This document shows positions 100-53,629 of a stretch of 60,591 bases of DNA, piece after piece. Source of the stretch: Rickettsiales bacterium (GTDB lineage Bacteria > Pseudomonadota > Alphaproteobacteria > Rickettsiales > UBA1997); contig JBIKKP010000003.1 in assembly GCA_044360285.1 (NCBI GenBank), positions 1-60,591 on the forward strand, written 5' to 3'. The stretch's first letter is position 1; the number at the start of each line of letters is the position of its first letter. Under the pieces are notes generated by a model, which was given only the letters and a program-made list of their open reading frames with translations, searched no databases and had not been told where the DNA came from. A program made the position numbers and the translations under genes.

Positions 100-1905
100 C
101 GGTCTGCAGAGCAATTAGATGGAGAGCGTGTTGAGGCTAGACAAAATGCTGAACAGGTGCGGAAATTAGAACAAGATCACGCAAGAGCTTTGGATGAAAT
201 TAAAGAAGCCCGGATAAGGGAAGCAGAGGAAAGGCAGGCTCAGTACAAAAGGGAAGCAGAGGCCAGAGAGGCTGAGTATAAAGCAGCAGCAGAGAAGTTA
301 GCGGCTCAACACAGAGAAGAAATACAAGCAATAAATTCTAGATATTCAGAAGAAGGGCGTGCCAGACAAGAAGCGATGTATGCTTTTATGCAACAACTTA
401 ATACGGCACGCACTGGTGAATTAGGAAGTTTATTCGATAGAATGTCTGCTTTGGCGCGTGAAATGTTGGATGGAGTCAGAGGTGACTCAGTCTCACATCG
501 AGAACATCTTATGCAATTTGTTGATGCTTCTTTTCAACGTGAATCAGAGAGGCAAACCCAAGAAAGTCAAAGGCGTGATGCAGTGGATCAACGGCGTGAT
601 GAAGCTGATACTCGTAGAGATCAGCTTCTTGCTCAAATTCTTGCAGATCAGGCTAGAAAAGCTGAAGAGCAGGATAAAAGAGCTGCAGATAGGCGAGCCC
701 AAGAAAGTGAAAGGCGTGAGGCAGTTGATGCTCGTGATCAGCTTCCTGCTAGTACATTAGAATCTGTTCAACGGTCTATCTCTGAAGCAATGAGTAATAT
801 GCGAGAGTTCTTTGCTCGAATTACAACAAGAGATGAAGAGCAGGTCAGAAGAAATGAAGAGTGGAAAGCTGCACAAATGGCATTGGAAGGAAGGCGAGAA
901 ACTTTTCTTGCACAATTGGTTGAGAGATTTGAACAGCTTCGGACTCAATCTCAAGTTCGTCCTGAAGGTAGGGTTGTTTATAATCGCCAGTATCATAATC
1001 GCCGGTATTATTATCGCCGGTATTATTATCAATCTCCTGCTCCTGGAATGCAGAGGGCGGAAGCAGAAGAGGCGGCAGCACCAGCACCGGCGGCACCAGC
1101 AGGACCAGTACCAGGACCGGCGGCACCAGCAGGACCACCACCAGCACCAGTACCAGGACTAGAGGCAGAACCAGCACCAGCGCCGGCACCGGCAGGACCA
1201 GCACCAGTACCGGCGGCACCAGCAGTACCAGAAGCGGCGGCACCAGCAGTACCACCAGTACCAGAGGCAGAACCAGAACCAGCACCAGCAGGACCAGCAG
1301 TACCAGTACCGGCGGCAGAAACAGCAAGACCAAGGATTTTTAGCGCTGTAGAAACTAAGACAGATGACTATTTTTCTGAGACTAGGGTGCAATTGCCAAG
1401 TTTAAAACAACATCCAACCTACACCGAAGAAGAAGAAAAAAAGATGCGAAGTGCATTCCTGGGTGATGGAAGAGGCAGAAGGGAGAAGATTCCTGGACCG
1501 GTTCCCGTTCCTGGCGCTCAAGGAATTTCTAGGTCAGATGAAGAAATCAGCGCTCAAGTTTTGATAGCTTTGAAGAAATTTGAGCTGGTTCGTTCTTTTG
1601 ACGAACTTGAGCAAGCTTCTAAGACTGTTCTCAGCGAATTTCTTGCACACAAAAATTGTCCACTAAGCGTGAAAAAAATGGGAGTGGATGGCTTTGCTCG
1701 TCACGCGGTTAGTAAAATAAGCCAAGATAGTCCGGCGATTTGGAATTTGGTAAAAGTAGGCGAAAGTGGTAGGGTTTTTATTGAAAAAGGAAGGCTAGAG
1801 ACTGATGCACTGACTCGCTTGCTGGATCGCGTTCTTGCTTCCCCTGGCACAACCCCGCAGGCTACTTCTGTGCAGCGTCTATCTCTGGGACGAGGTCGTT
1901 TTTAG
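1..1905 (+). CDS. 5'-truncated orphan coiled-coil / Pro-Ala-rich protein, candidate secreted effector
   Basis: Frame +1 is open from base 1 (DARARAAAAEEAARTRADAA...) into the listed ORF at 157. It has a long E/R/A/Q helical region, a Tyr-rich repeat, a Pro/Ala linker and the C-terminus PGTTPQATSVQRLSLGRGRF. No recognisable family. Confidence 0.8.
   Translation, partial: DARARAAAAEEAARTRADAAEADARARAAAAETRSAEQLDGERVEARQNAEQVRKLEQDHARALDEIKEARIREAEERQAQYKREAEAREAEYKAAAEKLAAQHREEIQAINSRYSEEGRARQEAMYAFMQQLNTARTGELGSLFDRMSALAREMLDGVRGDSVSHREHLMQFVDASFQRESERQTQESQRRDAVDQRRDEADTRRDQLLAQILADQARKAEEQDKRAADRRAQESERREAVDARDQLPASTLESVQRSISEAMSNMREFFARITTRDEEQVRRNEEWKAAQMALEGRRETFLAQLVERFEQLRTQSQVRPEGRVVYNRQYHNRRYYYRRYYYQSPAPGMQRAEAEEAAAPAPAAPAGPVPGPAAPAGPPPAPVPGLEAEPAPAPAPAGPAPVPAAPAVPEAAAPAVPPVPEAEPEPAPAGPAVPVPAAETARPRIFSAVETKTDDYFSETRVQLPSLKQHPTYTEEEEKKMRSAFLGDGRGRREKIPGPVPVPGAQGISRSDEEISAQVLIALKKFELVRSFDELEQASKTVLSEFLAHKNCPLSVKKMGVDGFARHAVSKISQDSPAIWNLVKVGESGRVFIEKGRLETDALTRLLDRVLASPGTTPQATSVQRLSLGRGRF
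979..1029 (+). repeat. 15-bp coding tandem repeat (YNRQY/HNRRY/YYRRY)
   Basis: tataatcgccagtat cataatcgccggtat tattatcgccggtat tattat. Confidence 0.85.
1072..1320 (+). repeat. Low-complexity coding repeat (Pro/Ala/Gly/Val)
   Basis: Reiterated gcaccagca/ggacca/gtacca units; this region also generates the antisense V/L-rich shadow ORF. Confidence 0.85.
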
Positions 1906-1975
1906 TTAGTTGATTAAAAAGCAGTTATTTTGAACTTATCGAAGTTATTTTGTTTTTGGTTGGGTCGACGTTTTT

Positions 1976-2593
1976 TTAGTAAAGTTCAGCAATCACTTTG
2001 TTGCGCAGATAGTTTTTGCTTTTGACGCCGGTGAATTTTGTTGCCACTTCGCCATCGCGTGAAATCAACGCAGTGTAAGGAATTTTTCCACCATAGCGAA
2101 TTTGTTTTTTCTGCAAAAATTCGATGAAGCCTTCCTTAAAAGATAAAAAGCGCGGTTGAAAATAAACATTTCCAAAGCTGCCAAGATATTCACCGAGCAC
2201 TGTTGGCTCTAGGTTGCGATCAATTGCAATGGCGATCACTTGCAAATCGGTATTTTGAAATTCGCGAGCGATTTCATTGATGATTGGAAAATTTTTTGAA
2301 CAAATTCCGCACCAAGTTGTGTAGATATAAAGCAAAATTGGCTTGTTGTCAGCATCTTCAAAGGCTTGGGCCACTTGAGCTGTGGTCATTGGCAGGCTTT
2401 TTGAAATGTCGTAGGAAATGTTTTTTGATTCAGGAATTTCAACATCAAGATTTTGTGCATCTTCGACAAATTTATTCCACAAAAAGCCGCCGAGTAAGGC
2501 AGCGAGCAGGATGATAAAAAACAGCATCTGAAATTTTTTTTGGTTTTGCGCTTTTTTATACGCAGAAATTTGTATGATTTTTTGATTCGGCAT
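1976..2593 (-). CDS. TlpA/thioredoxin-like membrane-anchored disulfide oxidoreductase
   Basis: N-terminal TM segment, YTTWCGIC (CxxC) motif and IPYT cis-Pro motif. The ATG at 2593 is preferred over the listed start at 2638. Confidence 0.8.
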   Translation of the reverse strand: MPNQKIIQISAYKKAQNQKKFQMLFFIILLAALLGGFLWNKFVEDAQNLDVEIPESKNISYDISKSLPMTTAQVAQAFEDADNKPILLYIYTTWCGICSKNFPIINEIAREFQNTDLQVIAIAIDRNLEPTVLGEYLGSFGNVYFQPRFLSFKEGFIEFLQKKQIRYGGKIPYTALISRDGEVATKFTGVKSKNYLRNKVIAELY

Positions 2594-52117: not shown

Positions 52118-52982
52118 GACCGCCGTTTTTCCAGTTGGTGGATTAGGAACCCGCTTTTTGCCGGCAACCAAGTCGATGCCAAAAGAAATGCTGCCCATCG
52201 CCAATAAGCCAATCATCCAATACGCCTACGAAGAAGCAAAAGCTGCTGGAATTGAGAAATTTATTTTTGTCACCGGTCGCAACAAAAACGCCATCAACAA
52301 TCACTTCGATCACGCTTACGAACTTGAGTCAACTCTTGATGAAAAAAATAAATCAAACGAGCTCGACCAAGTAATGTCTTGGATGCCGCAAGCTGGCCAG
52401 ATTGCTTTCGTGCGCCAACAAAAACCTCTGGGTCTTGGTCATGCAATTTGGTGTGCGCGTAATTTTATTGCCAGCGACGAGCCTTTTGTGGTGATTCTTG
52501 CCGATGAAATGATGATGCAAAGCCAGGGCAGAAAAAGAAATTTTTTGGGCGAAATGATCGATTTTTATTATCGCCATGAAGAGCTTTCCAGCGTTGTTGC
52601 CGTAGGCGAAATTGACATCAAAGACTCAACAAAATATGGAATAATTAAAACTGATGGCAGCAAAAGAATTACTGACATGGTTGAAAAACCAAAGTCAGAA
52701 GTTGCGCCATCAAATCTTGCAATCACTGGTCGCTACATACTTCAGCCAGAAATTTTTGAATATCTTTCTAAGTTTGAAATTGGTTCTGGCGGCGAAATTC
52801 AATTAACTGACGCCATGAAAGCGATGTGTAAAAATCATCCTTTTTATTATCGCATTATTGACGAAATGAGATTTGATTGTGGCAACGTGCTTGGCTATCT
52901 TGAAGCCAATATCGCCTTCGCTTTGGCTAATGAAAAAATTACGCAAGACGTCAAAGAGCTAATCAAAAAATACATTAAATAA
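52101..52982 (+). CDS. galU: UTP--glucose-1-phosphate uridylyltransferase
   Basis: AVFPVGGLGTRFLPATK..PKEMLP, GLGHA, VEKP and GEIQLTDA motifs. Confidence 0.96.
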   Translation: MTRKIRTAVFPVGGLGTRFLPATKSMPKEMLPIANKPIIQYAYEEAKAAGIEKFIFVTGRNKNAINNHFDHAYELESTLDEKNKSNELDQVMSWMPQAGQIAFVRQQKPLGLGHAIWCARNFIASDEPFVVILADEMMMQSQGRKRNFLGEMIDFYYRHEELSSVVAVGEIDIKDSTKYGIIKTDGSKRITDMVEKPKSEVAPSNLAITGRYILQPEIFEYLSKFEIGSGGEIQLTDAMKAMCKNHPFYYRIIDEMRFDCGNVLGYLEANIAFALANEKITQDVKELIKKYIK

Positions 52983-53629
52983 TGGCAAGAAATGTCGTAC
53001 CACCAAGATCAGGCACGCTAAGAAGATTTTTTTCTTGGAAAGGAATTGGCGACACCTGGAAGCAAGCCGGAGATATTGCCAGCTACGGCGGCACTAGCTC
53101 AATCTTGTGGCCGCTATATGGAGTATTTAATGCCTCTGCCGCCCTTGTTTATGGCACGGTGACAACTGCAACACAGCTTCTTGGTATAACAGCTGCTGGC
53201 GTTTATAATGGCGTCAAAACTATTGTTGAAGGAAGAGGTAAGCAAAAAGTTGCGCCAAAACTTGCGGCGGGAGTGATCAGAAGAGAAGTTTTAGATGCCG
53301 AAGTTGAGGTGGTGATGAGGGATGAAAGAGGAAAAATGACGAAAGTTATAGATCTGAACACCGGAGTGCAGAGAGATATAACCGGTGCCGATAGAGCAAA
53401 TGAATTAGGTAGAGATGCAAAGGCAGGGTCTAGGGGTGGTAATGAAAACACCTCATCTCCCAAGGGTTTGTGGAATCGTTTACGCGGATCGCAAGAAGCA
53501 GAAGTAGGCGTGACCATGAAACAAGCGAATCCTTCACCGAGTCCCCAGCCAACTTCTTGCGCACAATTCATCAGGAGACTTTTCCACGGACGACAAGATG
53601 ATGTCCGCGGACAAGGCGCTGGTCGCTAA
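52982..53629 (+). CDS. Orphan 215-aa protein, candidate effector
   Basis: TAATG-coupled to galU. It has a hydrophobic N-proximal segment and the tail PSPSPQPTSCAQF...GAGR. Confidence 0.75.
   Translation: MARNVVPPRSGTLRRFFSWKGIGDTWKQAGDIASYGGTSSILWPLYGVFNASAALVYGTVTTATQLLGITAAGVYNGVKTIVEGRGKQKVAPKLAAGVIRREVLDAEVEVVMRDERGKMTKVIDLNTGVQRDITGADRANELGRDAKAGSRGGNENTSSPKGLWNRLRGSQEAEVGVTMKQANPSPSPQPTSCAQFIRRLFHGRQDDVRGQGAGR

Follow-up and report, generated by a model that had tools for sequence, protein, structure and literature searches.

Substrates of type IV secretion systems (T4SSs) are hard to predict (PMC8035066; here and below, sources are cited for the parts of them that were available to us). 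The C-terminal tails of the Rickettsia effectors RalF and RARP-2 bind the coupling protein RvhD4 (PMC11077975), and substrates of VirB/D4 systems have positively charged, Arg-rich C-termini (PMC10025392). The rvh system itself is marked by duplicated VirB4, VirB8, and VirB9, several large VirB6 paralogs, VirB10, VirD4, and scattered genes (PMC8035066). No consensus signal for Rickettsiales T4SS substrates is described in the available parts of PMC8035066, PMC10025392, and PMC11077975. Here we analyze a 60.6-kb stretch of DNA, the entire contig C62 of a Rickettsiales genome (G000), which we call the window. An earlier note on this stretch had marked five orphan proteins with tails that start at a Pro, four of which were said to fit P-x7-[ST]-[AVC]-x2-[LVF], and had taken these tails for a candidate rvh-type secretion signal on a dispersed set of effectors. 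The genome is 1.46 Mb in 72 contigs, with 41.6% GC and 98.9% completeness, and its genus holds at least 43 further species genomes. We find that the motif recurs, with the same spacing and at the same distance from the C-terminus, on orphans of two congeneric genomes. The tail that these otherwise unrelated, species-specific proteins have in common most likely tags them for export and injection into a eukaryotic host.

Results

Genes were called with a simple dicodon-score caller (1428 genes in G000), and the motif tests used the last 40 amino acids (aa) of each protein and the regular expression of the earlier note unchanged. A protein was counted as an orphan when it had at least 100 aa, a complete 3′ end, and, at a cutoff of E<1e-5, no tblastn match in the other genome or genomes. 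As independent test genomes we used the congener G017, taken whole, and a second congener, G042, with 73% of the genome covered. The comparison of orphan tails with core tails and with shuffles, which the earlier note had suggested, was run with the regular expression in both and gave an orphan enrichment above either background. In G017, the motif is present on 7 of 331 orphans and 2 of 1088 conserved proteins; the shuffle mean is 1.14, and none of 1000 shuffles reaches 7. The corresponding figures for G042 are 4/79 and 3/796, with a shuffle mean of 0.38 and 0/500 shuffles reaching 4. When the two genomes are pooled, 11/410 orphan tails carry the motif versus 5/1884 conserved tails (Fisher 9.7e-6), where ∼1.5 would be expected from shuffles.

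The spacing and the position of the motif were examined with the same orphans. Spacers of x4, 5, 6, 7, 8, 9, and 10 give 2, 0, 1, 11, 2, 3, and 2 orphan matches, respectively (Poisson p 1.5e-6). The reversed motif occurs on no orphan of G000 and on 1 and 2 orphans of G017 and G042. For these two congeners, the first 40 residues of the orphans yield 0 and 2 matches and the penultimate 40 residues yield 0 and 0, and the frequency of the motif in body windows of the G017 orphans is 0.36%. The Pro lies 22-30 residues from the C-terminus in 10 of the 11 independent matches (binomial 9e-5), and the variable columns of the 11 narrow to [ST], [AV], and [LF]. Together, the congener enrichment and the spacer, reversed, and position controls indicate that the motif is real, that its spacing is fixed, and that its place is measured from the C-terminus. 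Of the lineage-specific tag that the earlier note had proposed, a position-dependent motif enriched on lineage-specific proteins in two congeners therefore stands, while the fifth tail of the original set lies outside it.

The same controls bear on the reading that the tails have no function and reflect composition, local low complexity, mis-called genes, or a 3′ cassette of common descent spread by recombination. P, S, T, G, and R are more frequent in orphan than in conserved tails, a motif obtained by expectation maximization (EM) in G000 is largely an Ala/Pro/Thr low-complexity pattern, the counts are small, and G000 lacks an excess beyond the discovery set, all of which would be expected on this reading. 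However, in neither G017 nor G042 does any shuffle that preserves composition give as many matches as observed, and low complexity would raise all spacers and the reversed motif together, whereas spacer 7 alone is enriched. Spurious open reading frames (ORFs) dilute signals rather than create them, and the tails are without DNA or protein similarity apart from the motif. We regard an absence of function as quite unlikely.

Within G000, 10 of 1298 tails match the regular expression, against 4.55 ± 2.09 in shuffles (maximum 11). By class, these include 4/185 orphans, all of them the discovery set, and 5/1053 conserved proteins. The G000 evidence by itself is not convincing because the excess consists of the four tails from which the pattern was derived, and the dispersed effector set that had been envisaged for this genome is not borne out by the strict motif, which gives no G000 orphan carrier outside the window. 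From this count alone, the pattern might be taken as post hoc, without an excess over the four original tails, but the results from the two congeners overturned that conclusion. One conserved protein of 159 aa (C63:7827-8306, + strand) carries the strict motif, with near-matches in register in G017 and G042, and its gene sits 1.2 kb from a 2172-aa VirB6-like gene; the motif on it could be chance or could mark a conserved substrate. Relaxed-motif matches in conserved proteins fall on ordinary enzymes with folded C-termini and were dismissed as chance.

The strict motif belongs to a wider pattern in the tails. After paralog filtering, the orphans of each of the three genomes have a Pro peak at about −19 to −30, which is not seen in conserved proteins, and Pro is enriched at these positions over the body: 6.8% versus 4.2% in G000 (p 2e-6), 5.4% versus 3.3% in G017 (p 2e-8), and 7.9% versus 3.7% in G042 (p 8e-6). 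The dipeptide GR occurs in the last 8 aa of 20/185, 19/333, and 8/79 orphans of G000, G017, and G042, compared with 13/1053, 11/1088, and 12/796 conserved proteins. A position weight matrix (PWM) was seeded with the strict matches, refined by EM, and applied in leave-one-genome-out fashion at a threshold passed by 2% of shuffles. In the same order of genomes, it recovers 9/185, 23/331, and 9/78 orphans versus 4/1053, 14/1088, and 17/796 conserved proteins, and 20 of the 23 matches in G017 have a Pro at −22 to −29. When the strict matches are removed, Ser/Thr and Pro alternate behind the anchor Pro and only a faint register persists, so the regular expression appears to be the sharp core of a degenerate signal.

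Four candidates were set aside in the course of this work. The first EM motif, obtained from G017 tails, was contaminated by a four-member paralog family and was replaced by the paralog-filtered sets. The G000 list of the three-genome PWM was discarded as an effector list, as this matrix over-fits Ala/Pro/Gly-rich low complexity in G000. CTERM signals consist of a short motif, then a transmembrane helix, and then a basic cluster; a CTERM-type (PEP-CTERM-like) sorting signal was rejected because the 7-26 residues that follow the motif are polar or basic and contain no hydrophobic stretch. A DNA-repeat origin of the tails was ruled out, since they have no common DNA longer than 12 nt.

The 15 strict carriers range from 110 to 6197 aa and have no pairwise blastp match at E<1e-3, as the earlier note had said less formally of the five window orphans. 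They share several traits with type IVA secretion (T4ASS) signals. Every carrier has a Pro 20-39 residues from its end, placing the signal within the last ∼50 residues, and all 15 have a net-positive tail with a charge of at least +1 in the last 25 aa (mean +2.47 versus +0.88, p 0.003). By a crude hydropathy test, which stands in here for a Sec signal, a hydrophobic N-terminal segment is present in 0/15 carriers and in 293/1048 conserved genes (28%; ∼25% of all genes). A domain scan of 10 independent carriers returned ankyrin repeats in 4, Mito_fiss_Elm1 in 1, and nothing in 5. Ankyrin genes (PF12796) form a class set independently of orphan status, and we compared the 42 complete ones with 3490 others. 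A Pro at −19 to −26 is found in 28/42 versus 869/3490 (p 1.8e-8), the strict motif in 3/42 versus 22/3490 (p 0.003), and GR in the last 8 aa in 6/42 versus 77/3490 (p 4e-4). With their ankyrin repeats, net-positive tails, and lack of an N-terminal signal, the motif carriers look like eukaryote-directed effectors.

A second feature points in a similar direction. CaaX-like ends (Cys-aliphatic-aliphatic-X) terminate 7 of 597 orphans and 1 of 2938 conserved proteins across the three genomes; they usually follow a basic stretch, and several stand directly downstream of motif-like tails. CaaX boxes are prenylated by the host, and the orphan ends suggest host prenylation of injected proteins. These features would also accord with a motif that acts after delivery or without export, as a linear motif read by a host protein or as a bacterial stability or chaperone site. 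The carriers are enriched in eukaryote-interaction features (ankyrin repeats, and CaaX ends right behind motif-like tails), and eukaryotic linear motifs typically reside in disordered segments rich in Ser, Thr, and Pro. Nevertheless, the distance to the C-terminus is narrow, and internal, N-terminal, and penultimate windows of the same proteins show no enrichment, a pattern more in keeping with a reader that recognizes a free C-terminus than with a generic linear motif. In addition, no known eukaryotic motif was matched in any scan of this analysis. We judge this explanation improbable.

Housekeeping genes make up the majority of the window genes, and the five orphans stand among them (Table 1). 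All five tails read in the sequence exactly as the earlier note had printed them, and the four said to fit the strict motif do so on direct reading. The PWM trained on G017 and G042 only ranks the tail of the 215-aa orphan first, that of the 1-1905 orphan second, and that of the 761-aa orphan 26th among 1238 G000 tails (equal or better score in 3.7% of shuffles for the last); these ranks are partly circular, as the seeds were chosen with the earlier note's own regular expression. None of the five orphans has a hydrophobic N-terminal segment in a hydropathy test, in line with the lack of a Sec signal that the earlier note had reported for the four with a visible N-terminus. Inside the 761-aa orphan, around residue 399, lies a single strongly hydrophobic segment that resembles a transmembrane helix (19-aa Kyte-Doolittle mean 2.46).

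Table 1. Positions of the tails, secretion genes, and CaaX-like orphans (window coordinates unless a contig is given)
Feature	Position	Strand	Remarks
VirD4-type coupling protein, 624 aa	19485-21359	-	Pfam T4SS-DNA_transf PF02534, E 3.6e-141; putative receptor of the tails
VirB10/TrbI-like protein, 950 aa	46959-49811	+	Pfam TrbI, E 2.7e-44, residues 750-944
Tail of partial orphan 1-1905 (634 aa seen)	1843..1902	+	Strict motif at 1843-1881, then 7-aa Gly-Arg end
Tail of orphan 8706-10991 (P0002, 761 aa)	10905..10988	+	Pro-started, Arg-rich; the only one of the five outside the strict motif
Tail of small doubtful ORF 23868-24200 (110 aa, TTG start)	23871..23954	-	Strict motif and Arg-rich end
Tail of orphan 30218-31483 (P0003, 421 aa, weak PP2C-like N-terminal region)	30221..30283	-	Strict motif; end not Arg-rich
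Tail of orphan 52982-53629 (P0004, 215 aa)	53531..53626	+	Strict motif and Arg/Gly-rich end
CaaX-like orphan	G000 C69:2406-3164	-	C-terminal end
CaaX-like orphan	G000 C57:25653-26090	+	C-terminal end

Two of the gene models called for revision. The third orphan, previously given as 23868-24354, is corrected to the 110-aa frame in Table 1. This frame is open stop-to-stop across 23868-24314, and because the stretch up to 24354 belongs to another frame, it is the weakest gene of the five. At the start of the window, the last 291 nt of contig C24 match positions 1-291 at 93.5%, and C24:9186-13271 is an open-ended ORF of 1362 aa with Glu/Arg/Ala-rich repeats shared with ORF 1-1905. The latter is the 3′ part of a larger gene that continues from C24; on the strength of the match and the common repeats, the first orphan is probably the end of a ∼1900-aa protein that was split by the assembly at a repeat.

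The orphan status of the five proteins was confirmed by family, congener, and genus searches. A tblastn search against G017 gave no match for any of them, and Pfam and NCBIfam gave nothing beyond a sub-threshold PP2C match for the 421-aa orphan, for which just weak PP2C-core matches were found in 4/24 genus genomes. The 761-aa and 215-aa orphans matched 0/43 other genus genomes; an ESM Atlas search gave no usable neighbor for the former, and the sole return of a homologue search with the latter was one identical 118-aa fragment. Conservation of a tail across orthologs was sought with the C-terminal 400 aa of a G017 carrier (h59), which matched 0/43 other genomes. The orphan slots turn over fast. 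The slot between a nucleotidyltransferase gene and FabD holds the 215-aa orphan in G000 and an unrelated 686-aa orphan in G017 (C2:75676-77736), both with Pro-started basic tails, and the syntenic G017 gaps at the 421-aa and 110-aa orphans are 167 and 18 bp. As listed, the FabD-like gene (53598-54626, + strand) overlaps the orphan tail by 32 nt. Since the gene aligns to G017 only from residue 25 onward, translation probably begins further downstream than listed, and the overlap may be an artifact. Large G000 orphans are often GC-rich (0.47-0.49 versus a genome mean of 0.41) yet low in GC at third codon positions (0.23-0.35); their GC excess comes from codon positions 1-2 of Ala/Pro/Gly/Arg-rich proteins and not from foreign base composition. 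Elsewhere in the window, positions 40586-41208 (+ strand) encode a 96-aa ORF and a HepT-like ribonuclease (PF01934, E 9.8e-27), likely a toxin-antitoxin pair, which is missing from G017 at that position.

As stated in the earlier note, VirD4 and VirB10 genes are both found in the window, where they are separated from each other (Table 1). The VirD4 is 74-86% identical to the VirD4 of many freshwater metagenome-assembled genomes with Rickettsiales or Alphaproteobacteria labels, including UBA1997 and UBA2645. The VirB10/TrbI-like protein has a long N-terminal extension of ∼690 aa, and its alignment to G017 is limited to residues 691-946. Outside the window, G000 has two genes each for VirB4, VirB8, and VirB9, and VirB6/TrbL is represented by at least 4 large frames (1017-2221 aa). 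The genome thus contains duplicated VirB4, VirB8, and VirB9, several VirB6, VirB10, VirD4, and a scattered arrangement of these genes, and we assign an rvh-like T4SS because this duplication pattern equals that of the rvh review (PMC8035066). The marker of type VI secretion, TssC, and that of type III secretion and flagella, FHIPEP, were not found in G000, and the rvh-like T4SS is the sole host-injection machine detected in this genome. A T2SSE-family ATPase frame of 567 aa (C35:63169-64305, + strand, E 2.2e-127) suggests that, besides the T4SS, G000 has either type II secretion or type IV pili.

Discussion

From the motif and the machinery we infer an export role for the tails, with VirD4 and its T4SS as the reader. 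The tails would constitute a genus-level C-terminal export tag in two parts: a hinge rich in Pro and Ser, most sharply defined as P-x7-[ST]-[AV]-x2-[LF] and with its Pro ∼20-32 residues before the C-terminus, followed by a short net-positive end that is often Gly-Arg. The tag would be borne by otherwise unrelated, species-specific proteins, many with ankyrin repeats and some ending in CaaX, and is probably disordered. The cytoplasmic VirD4 of the rvh-like T4SS may recognize the free tail and feed the tagged proteins through the T4SS into a eukaryotic host cell. VirD4 as the reader would fit the binding of RalF and RARP-2 tails to RvhD4 (PMC11077975) and the Arg-motif signals of VirB/D4 systems (PMC10025392). 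The family UBA1997 is reported to be epibiotic on cryptophytes (bioRxiv 10.1101/2023.01.31.526412); if the present lineage is epibiotic in the same manner, CaaX and ankyrin proteins would need injection, not release, in order to act. We put the probability of a genus-level tag that is read by VirD4 for T4SS delivery into a eukaryotic host at roughly 0.5. A complex prediction with VirD4 residues 105-590 (34-row alignment) and the last 55 aa of the 1-1905 orphan gave scores of 0.03 and 0.10, compared with a mark of 0.32, and speaks neither for nor against this interaction.

Several points weigh against delivery by VirD4 and the T4SS. The link between the tails and VirD4 is an inference. The numbers are small, with 11 independent matches, 73% coverage of G042, and orphan and conserved classes that depend on a simple gene caller and a single tblastn threshold. 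None of the 181 remaining G000 orphans carries the strict motif beyond the four discovery tails, and the genome-wide count of 10 lies inside the shuffle range. An initial PWM, built from G017 tails, failed to distinguish the tails of G000 orphans from either shuffles (p 0.32) or the bodies of orphans (p 0.49). The register outside the strict matches amounts to L/F at 16% at +12 versus 7-13% nearby. Finally, the strict motif is carried by ∼2-5% of orphans per genome (5-12% by PWM), so it cannot be the sole tag or route.

The main rival is a type I secretion system (T1SS) signal, for which the reader would be an ABC transporter together with a membrane-fusion protein and TolC. In favor of this reading are two TolC-like genes in G000 and an ABC exporter (ABC_membrane+ABC_tran) in the window at 27059-28855. 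Likewise, ankyrin proteins of Orientia and Ehrlichia are reported as T1SS substrates (PMC4315096; PMC3417381); 19/20 Orientia Anks are secreted in an HlyBD-dependent manner, by signals that are C-terminal and uncleaved (PMC4315096). The carriers also contain 38-62% L, D, A, V, T, S, I, and F in the last 60 aa, inside the published 37-63% range, but this measure does not discriminate, as the mean is 49.8% in carriers and 53.2% in conserved proteins. The traits published for T1SS signals, which are rich in these residues, depleted in K, H, P, M, W, and C, and often acidic at the end (PMC4315096), are not those of the tails described here. The tails are defined by Pro, have a background level of K, H, P, M, W, and C (18.2%), and are net positive in all 15 cases. 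Moreover, CaaX ends and ankyrin repeats need delivery to the host cytosol, and in an epibiotic lineage a T1SS would release its substrates outside the host. On this balance a T1SS signal is unlikely.

The motif supplies a concrete peptide to try against VirD4 and lets candidate effectors be listed in an uncultured and abundant freshwater lineage; if VirD4 does read the tag for delivery through the T4SS, the effector repertoires of such a lineage could be read from sequence alone. Sister-species slots with unrelated orphans that still bear Pro-started basic tails offer a view on effector birth. CaaX boxes and ankyrin repeats on the orphans and carriers argue that these bacteria manipulate their eukaryotic host from inside the cytosol. 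Somewhat more tentatively, the two-part tag may be the first sequence-defined recognition motif of a Rickettsiales rvh-type T4SS, read by VirD4 and repeatedly attached to new species-specific effectors that are injected into protist or algal hosts. A literature search, which lay outside the supplementary tables of PMC11077975 and bioRxiv 10.1101/2023.01.31.526412, found no earlier description of this motif or lineage.

Among the closest known systems are the Rickettsia rvh effectors, RalF and RARP-2, which come from the same order, use an rvh-type T4SS in which B4, B8, and B9 are duplicated and B6 is present in several copies, include an ankyrin-repeat substrate, and have their signal in the C-terminal tail (PMC11077975, PMC8035066). 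The available parts of these sources describe no consensus for those effectors, whereas the present tails have a motif of fixed spacing with a putative affinity for VirD4. Substrates of the Agrobacterium VirB/D4 system likewise belong to a T4ASS with a VirD4 receptor and have an unstructured signal at the C-terminus for which positive charge is important (PMC10025392). The tails here differ in the extra P-x7-[ST]-[AV]-x2-[LF] upstream at a set distance and in a Gly-Arg end in place of a spaced Arg motif. The Bartonella BID domain with its charged tail and the Xanthomonas XVIPCD are modular C-terminal elements that, like the present tails, mark unrelated T4SS substrates (PMC10025392). However, they are folded domains of ∼100 or more residues, whereas the present motif is linear, spans 13 residues, and lies in a probably disordered tail of 20-40 residues. 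The ankyrin and TRP T1SS signals of Orientia and Ehrlichia share the order, the ankyrin substrates, and a signal that stays uncleaved within the final ∼60 residues (PMC4315096), but, as far as the available text goes, they have no consensus and are often acidic, in contrast to the Pro-anchored, basic tails of this genus. CaaX-box effectors are comparable through the CaaX ends of 7 orphans in three genomes; there, CaaX is a separate element at the extreme end of a subset, with the present motif upstream of it.

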